Source: Nitrospirota bacterium
GTDB lineage: Bacteria > Nitrospirota > UBA9217
Length of the DNA stretch: 64,000 nt
Reading direction: 5' to 3'
NCBI GenBank assembly: GCA_963754875.1
Contig: CAVWHO010000020.1
Span: 320,001-384,000, forward strand
The notes beneath the pieces are model-generated. The model was not told where the DNA came from. It worked only from the letters and a program-made list of their open reading frames with translations, and ran no database searches. This document shows, one piece after another, positions 19,473 through 61,452 of this stretch (its first letter is position 1; the number at the start of each line of letters is the position of its first letter). The position numbers and the translations under genes are program-made.

Positions 19473-22015
19473 ACAAGCAAACACCTGTCATCAAGCCGAT
19501 CTACAGTATTCTCCCTGCGGACGTCGAGGGGTTCGACTCGCTGGCTGAGCTTGCCCTGGATCTGCGCTGGTCATGGAATCACATAGCCGATGAAGTGTGG
19601 CAACAGCTCGATCCCGACCTGTGGGATCTCACGCACAATCCCTGGGCTGTCCTGCAGACGGTTTCCCGGGACAAGCTTCAGCTCGTTTCAACCGATCCCG
19701 TTTTCCGCAAAAGCGTCGATGACCTCGTGCGAGCCCGGCGTCAGGCGGCGAAAGCCCCTGCGTGGTTTCAGCAAGAGCATGCGAAGTCTCCACTTACCCG
19801 AGTCGCGTATTTCAGCATGGAATTCATGCTGAGTGAAGCTCTGCCCATCTATTCCGGCGGACTGGGCAATGTGGCCGGCGATCAGCTCAAATCGGCCAGT
19901 GATCTGGGCGTGCCGGTGGTCGGTGTTGGTCTGCTCTACCAGCAAGGCTATTTCCGGCAGGTGCTCGACAAGGACGGAGCGCAACAGGCCCTTTTCCCCT
20001 ACAACGATCCCGGCCAATTGCCTATCACGCCGTTGCGTGAGGCGAATGGGGAGTGGTTGCGGCTGAAGCTCGACTTGCCCGGTTACCCGGTCTGGCTGCG
20101 CGCCTGGCAGGTCCAGGTCGGCCGTGTGTACCTTTACCTGCTCGACAGCAATGACCCCGCGAACATCCCTGCTCACCGGGGCATTACCAGCGAGCTCTAC
20201 GGGGGCGGGCCGGAGCTGCGGCTGAAACAAGAGATTATGCTTGGGATCGGCGGGTGGCGTTTGCTTAGTGCCCTTGGCATCCAGCCGGAAGTCTGTCACT
20301 TGAATGAAGGGCATGCCGCCTTCGCCATTTTGGAGCGGGCCCTGAGTTTCATGCAAGAGACAGGGCAGCCCTTCGAAGTGGCACTGGCCGTCACGCGAGC
20401 GGGCAATCTCTTCACCACCCATACAGCAGTGGCTGCCGGTTTTGACCGCTTTGCTCCGGCCCTCATCGAGCAATACCTCGGTGGTTATGCCGAGCAGAAA
20501 CTCGGTATCCCCCTCAGCGATCTGCTGGGACTCGGCCGCCGGAGCCCCGAAGACCAGTCGGAAAGCTTCAACATGGCCTATCTGGCGATCCGCGGAAGCG
20601 GGGCGGTCAATGGCGTGAGCCGTTTGCACGGAAAGGTGAGCCGGCAACTCTTTGAGCCTCTTTTTCCGCAGTGGCCGCAGGACGAAGTGCCGATCGGATC
20701 CGTGACCAACGGAGTTCACATGCCGAGCTGGGATTCGGCGCCAGCCGATGATCTTTGGACGGAAACCTGTGGAAAAGACCGTTGGCTGGGGACGACGGAA
20801 ACACTGGAGAAAGACATTCGCCGCATCTCTGACGCCAGGCTCTGGAAATTTCGTAGTGCTGCCGGAAAGTCTCTCGTCGAATACGCTCGCGAACAATTGT
20901 CCCGGCAACTGGCCGCTTCCGGCGCGTCACCCGAGGCGGTTAACGAGGCGAAGCACCTATTTGATCCCAACGCGTTGACGCTGGGCTTTGCACGCCGCTT
21001 CGCAACCTACAAGAGACCGAACCTGCTGCTGCACGATCCGGAGCGGCTGCTTCGCCTATTATCTGATCCAGAGCGCCCTGTACAGCTCATCATTGCCGGC
21101 AAGGCCCATCCGGCGGACCAGTCAGGGCAGTCTTTGATTCAGCAGTGGACCCATTTCATCCGACGCACAGAGGCGCGTCCCCATGTGATCTTCCTCAGTG
21201 ACTATGACATGCTTTTGACCGAACACCTGGTGCAGGGCGTAGATGTCTGGATCAACACGCCTCGCCGGCCCTGGGAGGCCTGCGGCACCAGCGGCATGAA
21301 GGTGCTCGTCAATGGAGGCATCAACCTGTCGGAGCTTGATGGCTGGTGGGCGGAAGCCTACACGCCTGAAGTGGGGTGGGCGTTGGGAGACGGCCTGGAA
21401 CATGGCGACGATCCCGCCTGGGATGCAGCCGAGGCCGGGGCACTCTACGACCTGCTCGAACGCCAAGTGATCCCCGAGTTCTATAATCGCGACAGGACCG
21501 GCATCCCCACTGCCTGGGTGGCGCGGATGCGAGAAAGCATGGCGTGTCTAACCCCGCGCTTCTCCGCCAACCGCGCGGTGCGCGAATACACTGAGCAACA
21601 CTACGTCCCGGCTGCTATAATTTATCGCAAACGAGCCGCAAGTCAAGGGGCCGTGGGCAGACAGGTGGTTGATTGGCGGCATAGGGTGGAGCAAAAATGG
21701 CCGACGCTCCACTTCGGCGAAGTGAAGATAGAGACCAACGGGAAACAGCATGTATTCGAGGTTCAGGTCTATCTCAATGACCTCGACCCCAAAGCGGTGC
21801 GTGTGGAACTTTATGCCGACGGCGTTAACGGCGGCGGTCCGGTGCGGCAGGAGATGAAGCGCGTTCGGCAGCTGGTGGGCATGTCGGGCGGCTTCGTGTA
21901 CACTGCGGCGGTGTCTGCGGTGCGCCCGGCGCCGGACTATACAGCGCGGGTGATACCGTACTTCTCCGGCGTTGCGGTTCCCTTGGAAGCCGATCCGATT
22001 CTCTGGCAGCGCTGA
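19469..22015 (+). CDS. glgP: Alpha-glucan (glycogen/starch) phosphorylase
   Basis: AYFSMEF, YSGGLG, HLNEGH, FARRFATYKR, EACGTSGMK PLP-lysine motif. Confidence 0.95.
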   Translation: MNKQTPVIKPIYSILPADVEGFDSLAELALDLRWSWNHIADEVWQQLDPDLWDLTHNPWAVLQTVSRDKLQLVSTDPVFRKSVDDLVRARRQAAKAPAWFQQEHAKSPLTRVAYFSMEFMLSEALPIYSGGLGNVAGDQLKSASDLGVPVVGVGLLYQQGYFRQVLDKDGAQQALFPYNDPGQLPITPLREANGEWLRLKLDLPGYPVWLRAWQVQVGRVYLYLLDSNDPANIPAHRGITSELYGGGPELRLKQEIMLGIGGWRLLSALGIQPEVCHLNEGHAAFAILERALSFMQETGQPFEVALAVTRAGNLFTTHTAVAAGFDRFAPALIEQYLGGYAEQKLGIPLSDLLGLGRRSPEDQSESFNMAYLAIRGSGAVNGVSRLHGKVSRQLFEPLFPQWPQDEVPIGSVTNGVHMPSWDSAPADDLWTETCGKDRWLGTTETLEKDIRRISDARLWKFRSAAGKSLVEYAREQLSRQLAASGASPEAVNEAKHLFDPNALTLGFARRFATYKRPNLLLHDPERLLRLLSDPERPVQLIIAGKAHPADQSGQSLIQQWTHFIRRTEARPHVIFLSDYDMLLTEHLVQGVDVWINTPRRPWEACGTSGMKVLVNGGINLSELDGWWAEAYTPEVGWALGDGLEHGDDPAWDAAEAGALYDLLERQVIPEFYNRDRTGIPTAWVARMRESMACLTPRFSANRAVREYTEQHYVPAAIIYRKRAASQGAVGRQVVDWRHRVEQKWPTLHFGEVKIETNGKQHVFEVQVYLNDLDPKAVRVELYADGVNGGGPVRQEMKRVRQLVGMSGGFVYTAAVSAVRPAPDYTARVIPYFSGVAVPLEADPILWQR

Positions 22016-52904: not shown

Positions 52905-53639
52905 ATGCAACACCTGAGACGACATCAAAGATACGGCCTGGATTTAATGGACGTAAAGGGCAAGATGAGTTTATCCGAAAAAGTCGAGATCCTTGATATC
53001 AGTCTCGGCGGAGTTGCCTTAAAAGTGGACCGAAGACTGAATCCCGGCAGAGAATATATGATCAAGCTGCACGATAAAGAGAATACTCTTAATGTAATGG
53101 GCATGATAGTCCGTTCCGAGCTCAGCGGAATGGAGACGAGAGACAATGGAGAAAGTGTCTCCATATACGCGGCAAGCATGCAGTTTAAAGATGGTTCAAC
53201 GGACCGGGTCGCCGATTTTCTTAAATCAATAGTGCCGAACCAAAAAAAGCCAGCCCCAATACCAGGGGAGCGGAGACTCGCTGTCAGGTCGCAAACTCCC
53301 GAGCCGCAGGAGAATATTTTGTGCTATCCCGCCAACTTCAAGGTGAAAACAGTCAGCCTCAGCGGCATGCTCATTCAGACTGATCAGGCCCTGGCAATAG
53401 AAAGCAAAGTCCCCATGGGATTGCCTCTGAATGACGGCACCACGGTCAACTTTACCGGACGAGTTGTTTCATGCCAAATGAAGGAAGACAAGGGGCAACA
53501 AACACACTTCGATATAGGGTCGGAGTTTATCGATCTGACAGACAAGGATAAAGCGTTGCTCCAAATGTTCATAGACCAGTGGACAACAATGGAAAACAGC
53601 ATCGCAAGAGAAAAAGAACACTCAGAGGGTCGTACCTGA
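52905..53639 (+). CDS. Tandem PilZ-domain protein (paralog of 45078-45800)
   Basis: RRHQRY plus DISLGG; ERRLAVR plus VSLSG; IGSEF. Confidence 0.85.
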   Translation: MQHLRRHQRYGLDLMDVKGKMSLSEKVEILDISLGGVALKVDRRLNPGREYMIKLHDKENTLNVMGMIVRSELSGMETRDNGESVSIYAASMQFKDGSTDRVADFLKSIVPNQKKPAPIPGERRLAVRSQTPEPQENILCYPANFKVKTVSLSGMLIQTDQALAIESKVPMGLPLNDGTTVNFTGRVVSCQMKEDKGQQTHFDIGSEFIDLTDKDKALLQMFIDQWTTMENSIAREKEHSEGRT

Positions 53640-54138
53640 ACGTCGTTGCCGGGAGAACCAATCGGGACATCCTGTATTGATTAAGATAGCAATAAACCAG
53701 CTTGCTTTTTCAACATGATAACCATGCCGGCTTCTTTTGAACGCACTGATCCTGTACAACGAGCAATCCGGTCCCTTTTTTGACATTATCTAAAAATACC
53801 CCCCCTTTACTAAATATCTTGCAATAAATAAACGAATATGATGGTAAAGTATCATATCTTTGTGTCATAATGTTTAATTTCCATTATAAACCTCCTGCAT
53901 TGCGCTGGTTTCTTTCTGTTTTATCAAGCATGTAAAATCTATTTGCCGAGTAGTTCTTCGACCACACAGGCCCGTACCAGAGCGTACTGCAGTGGCTCGG
54001 GGGAACGTCGTTCGGGAGCACGGGTTTTCTGAGCCGCGAGATCCAGATGTTTGCTGACTCAGATGCAGATCTGACCGCGCTTCTGAACGAACTGCTTTCC
54101 GGCAGAAGCCGGGAACCTATAGGGTCAGGTCTTTTAAT

Positions 54139-54167
54139 TTGACATTCTCCTTTTTCAGTGCTAATCT
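54139..54167 (+). promoter_or_regulatory. sigma70 promoter overlapping the left repeat; probably yields a leaderless transposase mRNA
   Basis: TTGACA-17 bp-TAATCT with extended TG. ATG begins 7 nt downstream and there is no Shine-Dalgarno sequence. Confidence 0.6.
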
Positions 54168-54173
54168 CGCCGC

Positions 54174-55025
54174 ATGACCCGCCCCCTTCGCATAGAATAC
54201 GCCGGAGCCGTCTACCACATCACCTCCCGCGGCAATGAAAAGAAGGCTGTTTTCAAAGACGACCAGGACCGCATCAACTTCCTGAACACGCTCCAGCATG
54301 TCAACAAGCGGTATAACTGGCTCTGTCATGCCTACTGCATGATGGACAATCATTATCACCTTCTGATCGAGACACCTGACGGCAATCTGTCCCTGGGTAT
54401 GCGGCAGTTGAACGGAGTCTATACGCAGCTTTTCAATAAACGTCATCAACGGACGGGCCATCTATTCCAAGGACGATACAAATCAATCCTCATTCAGAAG
54501 GACAGCCATCTTCTCGAAGTATGCAGGTACGTAGTATTAAATCCTGTCCGGGCGCGGATGGTTGAACGACCGGAAGCCTGGAAATGGTCCAGCTACCGTG
54601 CTACAGTGGGAAAGGAATCGCCGGCACCATGCCTGACAACGGACTGGGTCCTTGGGCAATTCAGCCGAAAGAGAACTGCGGCAGAGCAGAAATACCGGCA
54701 ATTCGTCGAATGGGGTATCGGCAAGGAGACTATCTGGAGAGAGGTAAAAGGACAGTCCATCCTGGGTGAAGACGATTTTGTGGAGGGACTCATCTCCCAT
54801 ATCAAGAAACATCAGAACATTCCTGAAATACCGAAGAGTCATCGCTATGTGAACAGACCGTCTCTCGACAAGATATTTCCGAAAAATGTGATCCTGGATA
54901 AGAGAAAACGAGATAAGAAGATCATTGATGCCGTGCAGAAATATGGTTATACTCAGCAGCAGATAGCCGCTCATTTGAGTATGCATTATTCAACGATCAG
55001 CAATCTGGTGAGGGGTAAGGCGTAA
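54174..55025 (+). CDS. REP-associated-type tyrosine (Y1/HUH) transposase with C-terminal HTH
   Basis: YHITSRGN, MDNHYHLL (HUH), GHLFQGRYKS, YVVLNPVRA, WSSY. C-terminal GYTQQQIAAHLSMHYSTIS. Confidence 0.9.
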   Translation: MTRPLRIEYAGAVYHITSRGNEKKAVFKDDQDRINFLNTLQHVNKRYNWLCHAYCMMDNHYHLLIETPDGNLSLGMRQLNGVYTQLFNKRHQRTGHLFQGRYKSILIQKDSHLLEVCRYVVLNPVRARMVERPEAWKWSSYRATVGKESPAPCLTTDWVLGQFSRKRTAAEQKYRQFVEWGIGKETIWREVKGQSILGEDDFVEGLISHIKKHQNIPEIPKSHRYVNRPSLDKIFPKNVILDKRKRDKKIIDAVQKYGYTQQQIAAHLSMHYSTISNLVRGKA

Positions 55026-55193
55026 CACCAAAATAAAAGACCTGACGCTTGACGGGTTCTAGTGATGCAGTTTCAGTTATTTCCATTTTGGAAAGCACTG
55101 ACGACGAAGGTGAACCTTTAAACTCACTTCTTGTCTTTTGCGCTAGACCGTTTCACTCGGAATTGTTATCATGCTATGTAAGGGGACCATCTG

Positions 55194-55790
55194 ATGTCAG
55201 AAAAGAATCCGCATGTCATTGTCATAGCCGGGCCGAACGGGGCCGGAAAATCGACGACAGCGCCGATGCTTCTCAAGGGGACGCTGGGTGTGACGGAGTT
55301 CGTGAATGCCGACGTCATCGCTCAGGGGCTCTCCGCGTTCCAGCCGGAGAGCGCGGCGTTCCATGCAGGCCGGGTCATGCTGGAGCGGCTGCACTTCCTT
55401 GCGAATGAGCGCGTGGATTTCGCATTTGAGACTACGCTGGCGAGCAGATCCTTTGCGCCCTGGATTGCAAAACTGAAGCAAAGCGGGTATACTTTCCACC
55501 TGGTGTTCCTGTGGCTTCCGAGCGCTGATTTTGCCGTTGCCCGCGTGGCCGAGCGGGTCCGCATGGGCGGGCATGATGTGTCTGAGGAAACCATTCGGAG
55601 GCGGTATAATAAGGGTATCGAGAACTTCTTCCGGCTTTACCGGCCGCTGTCGGACACGTGGCGGATGTATAATAATTCGGCCCGTATAGGACCACGGATT
55701 CTGGCTGATGGCGGGACTGGGAGAAGAGAAGCAACTTACGATCCGGCAACCTGGAGCATGATCAGAGGTGAACACAATGAGCGTAGCTGA
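55194..55790 (+). CDS. Zeta-toxin-like P-loop ATPase (COG4185 type)
   Basis: IAGPNGAGKST, FVNADVIA, FAFETTL, RVRMGGHDV, IRRRY. Confidence 0.85.
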   Translation: MSEKNPHVIVIAGPNGAGKSTTAPMLLKGTLGVTEFVNADVIAQGLSAFQPESAAFHAGRVMLERLHFLANERVDFAFETTLASRSFAPWIAKLKQSGYTFHLVFLWLPSADFAVARVAERVRMGGHDVSEETIRRRYNKGIENFFRLYRPLSDTWRMYNNSARIGPRILADGGTGRREATYDPATWSMIRGEHNERS

Positions 55791-55971
55791 AAAGAAAACA
55801 ATTGACGAACTCTTTCGCGACGGAAAAGAAATTGATATCGCTTTACGGAATGCCGTCCAGCAGGCTCTCTTGCAGCACAAGAAGGCCGGAAATCCTGTGG
55901 CCGAGTGGCGTGATGGCAAGGTTGTCTTGATCAAACCGGAAGATATTGTTGTTGAAGAGAATCAAAAGTAA
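55777..55971 (+). CDS. Small cognate partner (putative antitoxin) of the zeta-like ATPase
   Basis: Overlaps the ATPase stop. AVQQALLQHKKAGNPVAEWRDGKVV is typical of these partner proteins. Confidence 0.7.
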   Translation: MSVAEKKTIDELFRDGKEIDIALRNAVQQALLQHKKAGNPVAEWRDGKVVLIKPEDIVVEENQK

Positions 55972-56171
55972 AAACCCTCTCCGGGTTCCTTCCCTCTCAC
56001 ACAGCCCGCTCACCTTTGGAAAGCATCAATAAAAAAGCCCCAGTCTTAACGGCGACTGAGGCGCTGCCACGGTCCTGAACCATAGGTAATGGACCACCAG
56101 CCTTGCGGCTTGGCAATAATATACAGCAGTGAATAATAGAGTTCAAGCTAAAAGGAAAGGCATTATCAGTT

Positions 56172-56225
56172 ATGACATCTTCCGCAATCGTTCAAAAACT
56201 CTGGAACTACTGGGGGGGGCGATAG
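56172..56225 (+). pseudogene. 5' remnant of a type I hsdM gene
   Basis: MTSSAIVQKLWNY(W) versus MTPAAIVSKLWNYC of the intact hsdM at 58927. Shares AAAACTCTGGAACTACTG at DNA level. Confidence 0.75.
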
Positions 56226-56249
56226 GGTCACCCATTTAAAGGGCACCGT

Positions 56250-56625
56250 CAAGCGGAAAAAGCTATCTTGTGGCGAGAAACGAATGTTTCTCGCCGAGCC
56301 TTTTCGTTATCTTCATCATTACCATTGCCGCAGTTTCATTCGGTTTCGGTGTCAGTCTTCACTGCACCAGTCACCCATCGGGATTAAGGTCATTGGTGAA
56401 GCTCTTTATCCATGACCCTTTCCGCCTTATGGCGGACCAGAAAATCTTCGGTTCCATGCCGTGTCCAGGAGTTTGTACAGGTCTCATGGTTGTTAACCAG
56501 CCCCATGATGGCTCGCGGCATGGGCAGTAAAGATGCTGATAACGCTATAAAAGGGTGGGACGGATTACCAATCAGGTCTCGTGGTTTTTTGCCAACCCTA
56601 AGCCAGGTTCACCGTCCCAGCCAGC
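56250..56625 (-). ncRNA. Candidate bridge/seek RNA of the IS110 element
   Basis: Non-coding end with hairpins (56272-56295, 56348-56368, 56421-56436) and segments matching the target and donor junctions (56476-56484, 56413-56419, 56370-56378). Boundaries approximate. Confidence 0.7.
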
Positions 56626-57654
56626 CTATGAACTTTGTGTAAAGATTTTCTCCGGCATAAAGGGAACTCCATCTCGCATGATGTAGTACGCTGCCCGCGC
56701 CAGTTTGTGGGCCAGGGCTTGATGGGCTATCATGGCGTTGGTCTTTTGCATCTTGCGCTGGTAATATGCCCGGGCTTCCGGATAATAGCGCCGGGCGATC
56801 TCGGCAGCTTCGGAAAAGGCCCATGCCAGGTACTTGTTGCCGCTTTTCTTGTTCCCTTTGCCCTTTTTCTTGTCGTTGCTGATCCATTTGGTTGAAACTT
56901 TCCGGCAGTAGGAACAATAGTTGCCGACTTGCGCGAAGCGGCTGATCGGGCCGGTCTCCAGCATGATGGTAAGTCCCAACGTTTTACCCACTCCCGGCAA
57001 CGTGAGGAGATTTTTGTATGGTTCGCGCAGCTCCATTCTGTCTTCTATGATGCTCTCAACCGTTTTGATCTTGAGCGTCAGAAAATCTATGGACTCCTTG
57101 CTGATCTTGCCGGCCAAGGCCAGGTCCTCGTTCTGCTCAAGAAACGGCGCAACGCGATCCGTTTTCAATGCCTTGACGTCGTTCGTCTTGAGCCGGAACC
57201 CGTTGTTACGGCAAATGATGTTCTGCAAACTGATGATGAGCGAGGTCCTGAGCTTTACGAGATGACTTCGTTTGCGTAACAAGTCACGGACTGGTCGATC
57301 TTCTTTCGGGTAAATGTAGCCTTCGGGAAGGATCCCGAGCCGCAGCATCTCGGCCAGCCAGAAGGCATCATGCTGATCGTCTGAATACTTGAGCCCCTTA
57401 TATTGCTTTATCTCCGTAGGGTTTGCGAGATGCACCTTGTATCCTTCTGCCATGAGTGCATCCACCAACCAGTACCAGTTGTACGTGGACTCGATGACGA
57501 TGCCGATAATCGTATCCTTGTATGGTGCGAGAGCGGAAAGAATTTGTTCCGGATCATTGGGAAGCTTCTTTTTGAACACCCGTTTACCAGTTTCATCGAT
57601 GATCGCCAGATAACTGTTGCTTGAATGTAGATCAATTCCTGTGTACAATCTCAT
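56626..57654 (-). CDS. IS110-family DEDD recombinase/transposase
   Basis: GIDLH (D), IESTYNW (E), SDDQHDA (DD), LPGVG and the Tnp20-type C-terminal domain ending HKLARAAY. Confidence 0.95.
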   Translation of the reverse strand: MRLYTGIDLHSSNSYLAIIDETGKRVFKKKLPNDPEQILSALAPYKDTIIGIVIESTYNWYWLVDALMAEGYKVHLANPTEIKQYKGLKYSDDQHDAFWLAEMLRLGILPEGYIYPKEDRPVRDLLRKRSHLVKLRTSLIISLQNIICRNNGFRLKTNDVKALKTDRVAPFLEQNEDLALAGKISKESIDFLTLKIKTVESIIEDRMELREPYKNLLTLPGVGKTLGLTIMLETGPISRFAQVGNYCSYCRKVSTKWISNDKKKGKGNKKSGNKYLAWAFSEAAEIARRYYPEARAYYQRKMQKTNAMIAHQALAHKLARAAYYIMRDGVPFMPEKIFTQSS

Positions 57655-57832
57655 AAAGCACCTCCTGGGATAAGATTGGTCTCTTCTCCCAAGAGCATAT
57701 CAGAGCTTAACCACTCTGGTATGCTCTGGAGGTGCCCTTTATATGGTTATACAGGTCTTTTCTTCTTGATATCGCTTCTTTATGATATGGTGATATGGCG
57801 GTTGGAGCGGTGAGCGCGAATCGTCATCATTC

Positions 57833-58240
57833 CTAGCCCCGCCCGGCCCGGAGGGTTTCCCAGAATTGCCTCGGTGTGATGATGGGGATGTTTTTGTATC
57901 GCTCTAAAACGAGCAGATCCTTGTCGCCGGTTATAAGGTAGTCCGCATGTCCTGCATCGGCAGCGCCGAGAACGGGAAGGTCCTCGTTGTCGCGGCACTG
58001 CACAGCAGTCACCGGCAGCGGTACCGCAAGAATGGAATATTCTCTGAGATACGCCATGATGTCGTCGGCAATGGATGCTGGAAGCGCGATTTTTTGAATC
58101 AGTTTTTTACGAACTTCGGAAAGGATGTGCTCGCTGGTTATGACGGTGTGACCGGAAAGACAGAGTTCAAGAACGTCGGCGCTCAGGCCGCGCGCGGCAA
58201 ATGCCGCGATAATGACGTTCGTGTCCAGAAGGACTTTCAT
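57833..58240 (-). CDS. PIN-domain toxin (VapC-like)
   Basis: VLLDTNVII, CRDNED, ADYLITGDKDLL. Confidence 0.9.
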   Translation of the reverse strand: MKVLLDTNVIIAAFAARGLSADVLELCLSGHTVITSEHILSEVRKKLIQKIALPASIADDIMAYLREYSILAVPLPVTAVQCRDNEDLPVLGAADAGHADYLITGDKDLLVLERYKNIPIITPRQFWETLRAGRG

Positions 58241-58455
58241 GAAATAGCTTTGAATACATCTTCATCGGTCAGCAGGCCTTGTGATTCGGCAAACGGCAGG
58301 ACCTTTTTCCGCAACAGCTGAAACTGTTTGACCGAAAGGTAGCGGATAAGGGCATCTTTAATGATCTTGTCCTTCGATGTCTTTTCCGCTTTCATGACGG
58401 CTTCCAATTCTTTTTCGAGCTTGTCAGGTAATTTTATGGTAATACTTGATGGCAT
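58237..58455 (-). CDS. Ribbon-helix-helix (CopG-like) antitoxin
   Basis: ITIKLPDKL...IIKDAL..YL; GLLTDEDVF tail. 4-bp overlap with the PIN gene. Confidence 0.85.
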   Translation of the reverse strand: MPSSITIKLPDKLEKELEAVMKAEKTSKDKIIKDALIRYLSVKQFQLLRKKVLPFAESQGLLTDEDVFKAIS

Positions 58456-58473
58456 TGTTATCTCCTTTTATGT

Positions 58474-58707
58474 TTAACGCTTCTCTTCCCGGACTTCCTG
58501 TATCGCGTGAGCAATGTCTGATTCTATCTCGTCAGATGAATACTGCGAAGAACGGGCGTGGATTTTTCGCAGGATGCTGTCAAACCGCTTCTGCCATTCG
58601 TCATGGGAGAGGATTTTCAGCTCAACCTGTTCATGCTCTTTGAGGTCCATTTTCTGCAGCGGCTTGAGAACGCCGTTTTCGAATATTGCATTGACTACTT
58701 TGGACAT
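58474..58707 (-). CDS. DUF104/AF2212-like antitoxin family protein
   Basis: NAIFENGVLKPL..MDLKEHEQV signature. GGAGG RBS. Confidence 0.8.
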   Translation of the reverse strand: MSKVVNAIFENGVLKPLQKMDLKEHEQVELKILSHDEWQKRFDSILRKIHARSSQYSSDEIESDIAHAIQEVREEKR

Positions 58708-58926
58708 GCGGACCTCCTTTGCGATGGTTTCCGGGTTTTAATGCCGGGCAGTTTTACGCCCTCAATTGCAGAAGAGGTCACAACGGCTGTATAAAGCATG
58801 GATTTCCGCCGGGTTGGATTTTTGAGGTATGGATTAGTATTGATTAGCGAGTCTTTCTTCATAGGAATATTATAGTCGATATTAGAATCAAGTCAATCGA
58901 TTCTTAAAAGGAATAAAAGGGATTAT

Positions 58927-60495
58927 ATGACACCAGCAGCAATCGTTTCAAAACTCTGGAACTACTGTAACGTCCTCCGGGACGACGGAATGAGCTACGG
59001 CGATTATGTGGAGCAGCTCACGTACCTGCTGTTCCTCAAGATGGCCGACGAGCGCACGAAGCCGCCGTACAACCAGCCGAGCGCCGTGCCCGCGAAGTAC
59101 AACTGGCCGACGCTGCTCAAAAAAGACGGCGACGACCTGTTCGACCACTACCGCCACATGCTCGAAAGCCTGGGCAATGAAAAAGGTCTGCTCGGCCTGA
59201 TCTTCAACAAATCCCAGAACAAGTTTCAGGACCCTTCGAAGCTGCGACGGCTTGTTGTCGATCTGATCGATAAGGAAAACTGGTCGGTCATGAGCGCTGA
59301 TGTGAAAGGGGACGCATACGAGGGCCTCCTGGAGAAGAACGCACAGGATACCAAGTCCGGCGCAGGCCAGTACTTCACTCCCCGTCCTTTGATCCAGGCC
59401 ATGGTCGACGTGATCCAGCCGAAGCCGAAAGAGACCCTCTGCGATCCTGCGTGCGGGACCGGGGGCTTTCTCTTAGCTGCGCACGATTACGTGGTAAAGC
59501 ATAACCCGAACATGAGCGCCGATGAGAAGCGCAAACTCAAAGGCTCGACCTTTAAGGGCTGGGAGCTGGTCCAGAGCATGGCCCGGCTCTGCGCCATGAA
59601 CCTGATGCTCCACAGCATCGGGACCGACAAGGACCTTCCTATCATCGTTTCGGATTCTCTTGCTGCCGACCCGGGAGACAGGTTCGATATCGTACTGACC
59701 AATCCTCCCTTCGGGAAAAAGAGCAGCACCACTATCGTTGCTGAGAACGGCAAGGTATCACGGGAGACCGATATCATCGAGCGCGAGGACTTCTGGGCCA
59801 CGACGTCCAACAAACAGCTCAACTTCATCCAGCATGTAAAGACCCTTTTAAAACAGAATGGCCGCGCGGCGGTTGTCGTGCCGGATAACGTCCTGTTCGA
59901 AGGCGGGGCAGGGGAGACGGTCAGGAGAAAGCTCCTGCACGAGTGCGACGTGCATACCCTCCTGCGCCTGCCTACGGGCCTGTTCTACGCCCAGGGTGTG
60001 AAGGCGAACGTGCTGTTCTTCGACAAAAAGCCGGCAAGCGAAACACCTTGGACAAAGAAGCTCTGGATCTACGACCTCCGCACGAACATGCACTTCACGC
60101 TCAAGACGAGCTCCCTCCAGCGCTCAGATCTCGACGAGTTTGTGAAGAACTACAACCCCGAGAACCGCCATCAGCGTAAGGCTACCTGGAAGACTTCCCC
60201 CTCACCCCAGCCCTCTCCCCGAAGGGGCGAGGGAGTAAAAAATAAGCGCAAAACAAGTGGAGAGGAAGGTAAAAATGAAGGGCGCTGGCGGTCGTATACC
60301 TATGACGAACTCGTAAGCCGCGACAAGGCGAGCCTCGACATCTTCTGGCTCAAGGACGAATCCCTCGAAGCATCCGACAACTTGCCCGATCCCGACGTTA
60401 TCGCCCAGGAGATCGTGGAAGACCTGGAAGCTGCGTTGGAACAGTTTAGGGAGATTGTGGCTGATCTTGGTAGCAATAAGAAAAGTGCCGATTAA
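58927..60495 (+). CDS. hsdM: Type I restriction-modification N6-adenine methyltransferase subunit
   Basis: KLWNYCNVLRDDG, GQYFTPR, DPACGTGGFL, NPPF, VPDNVLF, LRLPTG, SLDIFWLKD. Confidence 0.93.
   Translation: MTPAAIVSKLWNYCNVLRDDGMSYGDYVEQLTYLLFLKMADERTKPPYNQPSAVPAKYNWPTLLKKDGDDLFDHYRHMLESLGNEKGLLGLIFNKSQNKFQDPSKLRRLVVDLIDKENWSVMSADVKGDAYEGLLEKNAQDTKSGAGQYFTPRPLIQAMVDVIQPKPKETLCDPACGTGGFLLAAHDYVVKHNPNMSADEKRKLKGSTFKGWELVQSMARLCAMNLMLHSIGTDKDLPIIVSDSLAADPGDRFDIVLTNPPFGKKSSTTIVAENGKVSRETDIIEREDFWATTSNKQLNFIQHVKTLLKQNGRAAVVVPDNVLFEGGAGETVRRKLLHECDVHTLLRLPTGLFYAQGVKANVLFFDKKPASETPWTKKLWIYDLRTNMHFTLKTSSLQRSDLDEFVKNYNPENRHQRKATWKTSPSPQPSPRRGEGVKNKRKTSGEEGKNEGRWRSYTYDELVSRDKASLDIFWLKDESLEASDNLPDPDVIAQEIVEDLEAALEQFREIVADLGSNKKSAD
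60197..60235 (+). repeat. REP-like palindromic element within the hsdM reading frame
   Basis: CCCCCTCACCCCAGCCCTCTCCCCGAAGGGGCGAGGGAG. Hairpin 60211-60233. Encodes SPSPQPSPRRGEG. Confidence 0.75.
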
Positions 60496-60987: not shown

Positions 60988-61452
60988 ATGTCATTTAACC
61001 CGGAACAGACAGAGAAGGATATGCTGGCATCAGCTCAAGCGGTCATGGGCACAGAATGGCTCAAGATAAAGGACGCGCTGCAGCAGGTGATAGATGGTGA
61101 GCGCGAAGCTCTCAAAAAGATTGCTGAGGCATATGCTCTTGGTAAAGTGAAAGTACCCCGCAGCAGAGCTGCGGGGCATCTGGCCTTGGAACCTAAAGAT
61201 ACATCGAAACAAGAGGCTAATCCTGACTACGTCAGGATGTCCTTTTCATCCCAGCAGCAGAGCTGCTGGGTATTTCAGGACGCTTTTATAAATGAAGATG
61301 ATCTCAAGAGCCAACTAGAGGACGAGAAAAAAACATTTAATGCTGGTCTTTCCATGGTGCATGCGGTGAAAAGGGCATCTGTACAAAACGCTGTCAATGC
61401 GGCCTTGGGAACATTCTGGAAGGCGGTTTCTGCTGCTGTTAAACCAGGCTGA
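60988..61452 (+). CDS. Hypothetical helical protein carrying an in-frame hairpin-rich insertion
   Basis: GAGGAG RBS. Amphipathic helical sequence interrupted by an atypical segment at 61147-61287. Confidence 0.7.
   Translation: MSFNPEQTEKDMLASAQAVMGTEWLKIKDALQQVIDGEREALKKIAEAYALGKVKVPRSRAAGHLALEPKDTSKQEANPDYVRMSFSSQQQSCWVFQDAFINEDDLKSQLEDEKKTFNAGLSMVHAVKRASVQNAVNAALGTFWKAVSAAVKPG
61147..61287. mobile_element. Miniature palindrome-ended non-autonomous element (IS200/IS605- or HUH-dependent type)
   Basis: Perfect 9-bp hairpins CCCCGCAGC-AGA-GCTGCGGGG (61156-61176) and CCCAGCAGC-AGA-GCTGCTGGG (61250-61270), plus central ATCCTGAC-TAC-GTCAGGAT. Boundaries inferred. Confidence 0.65.

Follow-up and report, generated by a model that had tools for sequence, protein, structure and literature searches.

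How does an insertion sequence come to lie exactly inside the terminal repeat of an unrelated mobile element, and what leads it there? The question is raised by a 64,000-nt stretch of a Nitrospirota bacterium genome (the window; contig CAVWHO010000020.1, positions 320,001 to 384,000), in which an IS110-family element splits a copy of the terminal inverted repeat (TIR) that flanks a TIRYT-type Y1/HUH transposase gene. In all its copies in this genome (G000), the element, a member of the IS1111 group, sits at the CA of a TIRYT TIR, and it is very probably led to that point by a bridge RNA from its 3' end, one loop of which (loop 1) has predicted base-pairing with each of the repeat's two strands.

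The TIRYT element of the window consists of the following features:

54119-54141, plus strand: left TIR, an intact target (member of an inverted pair and best PWM match; the -35 box of the likely tnp promoter lies at its inner edge)
54174-55025, plus strand: TIRYT (RAYT-like) Y1 HUH transposase, 283 aa, with HYH at residues 61-63, a weak C-terminal HTH, and matches to NF047646 and PF01797
55029-55049, minus strand: right TIR, an intact target (inverted pair; PWM)

The two arms of the repeat (54121-54141 and 55029-55049) are 21 nt long and 90% complementary. The gene product matches PF01797 and scores 90.9 bits with NF047646 (cut-off 80), and a C-terminal HTH_23 match at residues 249-280 (E 3.8e-4, 20.6 bits) lies under its cut-off of 24.6. 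TIRtrons, or TIRYT elements, are described in the accessible text of Di Nocera 2013 (PMC3733652) as a Y1/HUH gene with a C-terminal HTH (HTH_23, HTH_28, or Bac_DnaA_C), TIRs with a GGGGWSAS motif, and families of solo TIRs; TIRYT is subclass 2.1 of TnpA-REP in that of Quentin 2018 (PMC6006769). The window gene and its repeats fit this class in sequence, sharing with it the Y1/HUH gene, TIRs with a GGGGWSAS-like motif (7/8 in the left arm of the window, 8/8 in L201, L211, and L214), and solo TIRs. Homologues of the Y1 gene are found in 32 of the 61 genomes searched, and the repeat anchor is present at 47 of 57 TIRYT gene ends (30 fetched loci; 45 distinct), with the consensus TAGGGT-CA-GGTCTT followed by an A/T-rich interior. 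G000 has 23 further PWM matches above 17 bits, many of them solo repeats. TIRYT units that are 92-95% identical occur in different flanks and begin to diverge about 6-10 nt outside the CA; the insertion sequence therefore inserts a few bases inside the likely end of the element. An insertion in the left repeat keeps the -35 box on the side of the TIRYT gene.

The interrupted copy of the repeat lies downstream of this element:

56221-56230, plus strand: outer half of a split solo TIR with the CA core (56229-56230), identified by sequence comparison of copies
56231-57753, minus strand: IS1111-group insertion sequence, 1523 nt plus one shared core, present in three copies with identical ends
57754-57772, plus strand: inner half of the split solo TIR (TIR-interior score 7.0 bits; empty allele)

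Excision of 56231-57753 in silico rejoins the flanks with a single CA. As the preliminary description had claimed for these boundaries, the longest stretch shared by the rejoined site and the left TIRYT repeat is 17 nt (54119-54135), a length at which a given sequence has a chance expectation of 0.0005 occurrences in this genome; with the right repeat the site has 12 nt in common. Both junctions carry the CA (56229-56230 and 57752-57753), with no longer target duplication, a second element of that description which recurs in all three full copies. The window insertion site is a solo TIR, with the TIRYT gene absent after it.

The other copies in G000 lie at C15:184665-186187 and C5:130316-131838 (the window copy is on C20). 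They are identical to each other and differ from the window copy at 14 positions, a pattern of sequence divergence that suggests recent movement. The flanks of all three full copies read GTCA/GGTCTTT (the slash marks the insertion), and a TIRYT TIR is occupied at the same CA by three of three full copies and two of two remnants, with none in unrelated sequence. The C5 copy lies 20 nt from the end of a TIRYT gene that shares 92% identity with the one in the window, and splits the right TIR there. The C7 remnant, a right end of the insertion sequence, is placed after the outer half of a repeat, and the C18 remnant, a left end, precedes an inner half that is followed by a decayed TIRYT start. In another genome (L224, G070), an empty allele upstream of the same PIN toxin-antitoxin/hsdM block has an uninterrupted repeat with one CA, which confirms the boundaries originally proposed; in L223, likewise from another genome, the insertion sequence occupies the position corresponding to the window site. 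One further TIRYT gene end, in L206, is occupied by the end of a related insertion sequence.

The anatomy of the insertion sequence is as follows:

56234-56247, minus strand: right sub-terminal inverted repeat of 14 nt, separated from the core by 3 nt and conserved across relatives
56247-56252, minus strand: -35-like box TTGACG, recognized by sequence
56626-57654, minus strand: IS110-family DEDD recombinase, 342 aa, with D8, E55, D93, D96, and S259
57731-57744, minus strand: left sub-terminal inverted repeat, followed by a 7-nt extension with a -10-like box (57745-57751) and the CA core (57752-57753)

The recombinase exceeds the cut-offs of both PF01548 (N-terminal DEDD RuvC) and PF02371 (C-terminal Ser), as well as that of NF033542 (178 bits vs 140). 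D8, E55, D93, and D96 are invariant in 129 of 129 sequences, and S259 is kept in 127 of them. The 14-nt sub-terminal repeats are complementary at 13 of 14 positions and carry extensions of 7 and 3 nt (6 and 3 nt in most relatives); non-coding DNA extends over 395 nt downstream of the gene and 97 nt upstream. For the IS1111 group, the available portions of PMC11187229 and PMC11208160 give sub-terminal inverted repeats of 7-17 bp, extensions of 7 (or 6) and 3 nt, and a long downstream non-coding region. By its sequence, the window element is an intact IS1111-group element of the IS110 family, so that the earlier label of IS110/IS1111 holds for the family and is refined to the group. In the predicted circular form, TTGACG of the right end and TATAAC of the left end would stand 18 nt apart. 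A promoter and terminator scan of the linear element gave nothing informative. An Rfam scan of positions 53000-59500 gave no match in the non-coding end, and two weak snoRNA matches from the same scan, far below gathering scores, were rejected.

Two parts of a predicted bridge RNA (or seekRNA) are assigned to the downstream non-coding region:

56553-56622, minus strand: predicted target-binding loop 1, with guides at 56595-56601 and 56573-56580 and a handshake pair at 56571-56572
56370-56446, minus strand: predicted donor-binding region, with a guide at 56372-56378 (matching the right end and core), a handshake pair at 56370-56371 (tracking the target), and a weaker left-end guide at 56440-56446

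The predicted fold of the non-coding strand is better than that of shuffled sequences (z -3.97). An alignment of 85 regions reveals a repeated scaffold, which opens with a guide whose sequence complements the right flank, continues through a small hairpin to a second guide with the sequence of the left flank and core, and closes with two handshake bases; at the sequence level this is the IS1111 guide order, with the top-strand complement before the bottom-strand match. Target positions -1 to -4 match RNA columns 56575-56578 of loop 1 in 91-95% of weighted elements (80 elements, 34 clusters), and the covariation excess is 0.34-0.59 against a permutation maximum of 0.28 (20 runs). Of 75 distinct combinations, 63 have a loop 1 that fits the last four target bases when wobble is allowed, and 56 when it is not (null maximum 36% and 21%, respectively); these counts come from related elements and are not independent. 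The earlier proposal that this insertion sequence is aimed at the repeats of an HUH element thus gains a predicted matching guide, in the non-coding end, that covaries with the target. The right-flank guide of loop 1 shifts in register by 1-2 nt between lineages, and its matches are seen by eye with a weak column signal (excess <=0.25). The outer-half guide is an imperfect match in two of the three G000 copies. Across 26 sequences, the stems of loop 1 and of a second loop, described below, keep 94-96% pairing, and 13 of 34 pairs show compensatory changes. In 74 of 83 cases the handshake of the donor region is the same as the two bases with which the right flank starts, an identity predicted by the handshake rule of IS621 (PMC13626964, accessible text); the predicted left-end donor guide fits poorly in the window's subclade. 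One other RNA segment, 56415-56421, resembles the target and was rejected as a guide, being nearly constant while targets change. Judged by these comparisons of guide and target, loop 1 is the main targeting loop.

The relatives of the element place the target in a wider context. From 191 loci, 100 distinct elements were obtained with both ends rebuilt. In 11 of 123 distinct left flanks, the inner side of the insertion has a TIRYT gene 20-110 nt away, as would be expected of left and right repeats; the other 112 are without a TIRYT match, and 16 of the 123 are shorter than 200 nt. Among right flanks, 1 of 95 has a TIRYT gene near, 1242 nt away. The repeat interior beyond the guide-paired bases was scored with a PWM built from TIRYT loci (89 sites, of which 11 without an extracted guide are not counted). 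A score above 3 bits is reached by 30 of 43 sites whose guide is of the TIR type, as against 2 of 35 sites with a different guide and 13 of 162 genomic 9-mer matches; in a leave-one-out check, 37 of 45 true repeats pass the same mark, and the modelled interior is missing at 13 of the 43 TIR-type sites. Within the window's subclade, a GAC/GAT-type motif ends 22 of 22 left junctions and the interior is present in 17 of them. A pattern search supplied 7 further hold-out junctions, 3 of which score above 3 bits; both sets consist of related rather than independent sites.

Several features of individual junctions were recorded in addition. At the right junctions of L114, L137, L141, L026, L038, and L075, the last 13-20 nt or more of the right end are tandemly duplicated. 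L034 and L144 are two records of one insertion site with different loop-1 guides, a single one of which matches exactly; the difference suggests either a change of guide after insertion or assembly mixing. A distant relative in L082 lies between CRISPR-associated genes (Cas5fv-like and Csy4 Pfam matches).

Two other accounts of the insertion site have to be weighed against RNA guidance. A match by chance, or repeat halves made or duplicated by the insertion sequence itself, would suit the absence of a TIRYT gene inside the window site, but five independent sites in one genome and intact repeats around TIRYT genes in many genomes speak against it; the copy sites and the empty allele in L224 refute this explanation, whose probability is close to nil. 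The guide might also set only a short, loose motif, with the preference for true TIRs arising from survival (insertions in genes being purged) or from TIRYT protein at the repeat. Unoccupied sites outside TIRs match as well as the occupied C15 site (e.g., C7:193570), and of 12 free GTCAGGTCTTT sites about half appear by eye not to be TIRs. Target choice dependent on structure is reported for ISPpu10 in the available part of a preprint (10.64898/2026.03.19.712850). However, the 11-nt full-guide motif has three genomic matches, each of them a TIRYT TIR, and guide variants follow TIR variants: an AATCT-type guide adjoins a different TIRYT family in L123/L124. A guide confined to a loose motif is unlikely, and in any case this account modifies RNA guidance rather than replacing it; survival bias or help from the TIRYT protein may add to the preference for TIRs.

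Guidance by loop 1 leaves a second loop of the same RNA to be accounted for:

56454-56523, minus strand: predicted target-like loop 2, with guides at 56500-56506 and 56478-56485 and a handshake pair at 56476-56477

Loop 2 is visible in all aligned elements (more than 60% identical) and, by eye, in relatives that are 40-51% identical, and its stem is kept with compensatory changes in 7 of 13 pairs. It also follows the target more closely than shuffled pairings do (43 of 75 combinations when wobble is allowed, the null maximum being 36%), and these observations argue for a function as a guide. In the window's subclade, which has one extra base at the left end, a handshake pair fitting the left end is found only in loop 2 (15/15, one clade and hence one event); outside this subclade, the same pair occurs in loop 2 in 14 of 60 cases without such a fit. 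On this sequence evidence a second working guide is possible, though doubtful. The opposing explanation, in which loop 2 is a structural or vestigial duplicate whose similarity to loop 1 is kept by conversion, is a serious one that falls a little short of being probable. An exact match (4/4) between loop 2 and the target is limited to 14 of 75 combinations, and among 57 combinations in which the last four bases of the loops differ, loop 1 is the better fit in 26 and loop 2 in 2, with 29 ties. One subclade has changes in loop 1 and the target but an unvarying loop 2. Among the 14 differences between the window copy and the C15 and C5 copies are those at 56480 and 56485, where the window base in each case makes loop 2 identical to loop 1, and this sequence pattern hints at conversion between the loops. 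RNAalifold favours another inner pairing for loop 2. The reading of loop 2 as a guide for the donor or the junction was discarded, since its two segments resemble the target and not the element ends, and an automated count of two loops in 97 of 100 elements was set aside, as the search pattern can also match the donor scaffold.

The targets of siblings are not confined to TIRYT repeats. Siblings 77-78% identical and with another guide adjoin ISNCY transposases (L139, L144, L030, L032, L034, L035, and L027), NF033594 being passed by 7 of 9 flank ORFs scanned, two of which are the same site. Those in L130 and L133 are inserted between an IS200/IS605 tnpA gene and its terminal hairpin. On a quick midpoint-rooted tree of 75 proteins, TIR-like targets (a label for a sequence pattern that takes in types without a verified TIRYT gene) make up 41 rows over deep and shallow branches, with 10 changes, and the ISNCY elements form a single clade that is supported; the tree suggests repeated switching away from TIRs.

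Further sequence features accompany these sites. L139 and L027 have a repeated motif, about 25 nt long, next to the ISNCY-end insertion site. The window has two G+C-rich hairpins (61156-61179 and 61250-61273) like that beside the IS200/IS605 tnpA in L130. The right-flank targets of a clade comprising L006, L018, L136, L138, and L167 start with CAT/CAG and carry a further conserved motif; they may be the end of another IS110 element, because the gene of such an element begins about 110 nt from the insertion in L018.

The surroundings of the window site include a partial gene copy:

56171-56212, plus strand: truncated 42-nt copy of the hsdM start, a direct repeat ending just outside the solo TIR

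Around the site are a zeta-toxin-like ATPase, a PIN/RHH toxin-antitoxin pair, an AF2212-like gene, and a type I hsdM (55194-55790, 57833-58707, and 58927-60495). Truncated hsdM starts in the window, in L044, and in L225 (1-110) vary in length and stop about 8-10 nt outside a TIR; in the window and L044, toxin-antitoxin genes and a complete hsdM start follow at some distance. These variable breakpoints suggest that the outer edges of TIRs are places where insertions or deletions made by TIRYT build a defence island. Tandem duplications of about 7-15 nt are stacked just outside TIRs in L194, L200, L202, L207, L210, and G000 C7 near 60270, often ending in a partial repeat. No far-side TIR closing a cargo element around the toxin-antitoxin genes was found by PWM in the window, whose matches are the two TIRYT arms and a weak one at 21764.

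Insertion into the ends of other mobile elements has precedents in the IS1111 group. IS4321 and IS5075 reportedly aim for the Tn21 family's terminal inverted repeats, and other IS1111 elements are said to target attC sites. The window element resembles IS4321/IS5075 in its IS1111 type, its sub-terminal inverted repeats, and its aim at the TIRs of another transposable element; in contrast to their target, the repeat of a Tn21-family DDE transposon, the target here is the TIR of an HUH/Y1 TIRYT element, mostly in solo copies. REPs, which are the repeats that belong to RAYT HUH enzymes, serve as targets for ISPa11 and IS621 (Siddiquee 2024, PMC11187229; Durrant 2024, PMC11208160; available portions). 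From what these portions describe, the window element agrees with the seekRNA systems of ISPa11, ISEc11, and ISKpn4 and with IS621 and ISPpu10 in its downstream non-coding region, 7- and 3-nt extensions, guide order, 2-nt core, and handshake pairs; unlike them, it has a TIR rather than a REP as its target and a predicted RNA with two target-like loops on one scaffold plus a donor region, instead of a single loop for the target and another for the donor. The latter arrangement is also given in the accessible text of 10.1101/2025.05.14.653916, 10.1101/2025.10.25.684509, and PMC13604230, and that of 10.64898/2026.08.14.744561 mentions one locus with several predicted donor loops. The nearest named label in a plasmid collection (RefSeq/PLSDB) is an ISGsu4-like IS110 transposase, 48% identical; the record so labelled is similar by eye in its ends and loop scaffold and has a different target.

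A literature search found no published insertion into a TIRYT TIR and no clade-wide duplicated target loop, though ISfinder, figures, and supplements may hold cases. Insertion of insertion sequences in TIRs is not described in the available text of PMC3733652 (no occurrence of IS110) or PMC6006769 (one, unrelated), and the target motifs are absent or incidental in the readable supplements of PMC11208160 and PMC11187229. The preliminary description had not recognised the target class as a described one, and this stands for the TIRYT TIR, which was not found in print as a target; the HUH element itself belongs to a described class, and IS1111 elements in transposon ends and REPs are known, so that the target is new in the kind of repeat and not in principle. 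Two findings appear to be new, in that neither was found in print: TIRYT TIRs as an IS1111 target, together with siblings retargeted to ISNCY and IS200/IS605 ends, and a further conserved loop of target-like sequence, which follows the target in part and is a poorer predictor of it than loop 1.

Under RNA guidance by loop 1, insertion would proceed through steps for which IS621 and ISEc11 serve as models for the circle, the junction promoter, RNA binding, and strand exchange. The insertion sequence would be excised as a circle, and a promoter would be assembled at the circle junction from the -35-like and -10-like boxes. The bridge RNA would be held by the DEDD/Ser recombinase, the guides of loop 1 would pair with both target strands of the repeat, and strand exchange would take place at the 2-nt core, driven by the "handshake" pairs. 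Loop 2 would most likely be an old duplicate, retained as a looser second guide. TIRs offer a conserved, intergenic, multi-copy landing pad that is spread between genomes by the TIRYT lineage, and the likely benefit to the insertion sequence would be a neutral site and carriage among genomes with TIRtrons; siblings with altered guides occupy the ends of other mobile elements. A more ambitious reading, which is rather unlikely, would make this a natural multi-guide bridge RNA: one transcript with two working target loops and conversion between them, in which one loop drifts to a new target as the other keeps the old. The lineage could thereby follow diverging TIRYT families and jump to ISNCY and IS200/IS605 ends, and loop 2 of the window's subclade would supply the handshake lost by loop 1.

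TIRYT terminal repeats and natural retargeting events extend the range of RNA-guided IS110 systems, which are used for genome editing, and the matched pairs of guide and target reveal which mismatches and wobbles are tolerated in an IS1111-type RNA with a TG/CA core. If loop 2 works, it would provide a ready scaffold for multiplexed bridge recombination and would allow a guide to evolve without losing the old target. For the TIRYT elements themselves, the insertions mark the ends precisely and so help in testing whether uncharacterised HUH enzymes transpose.
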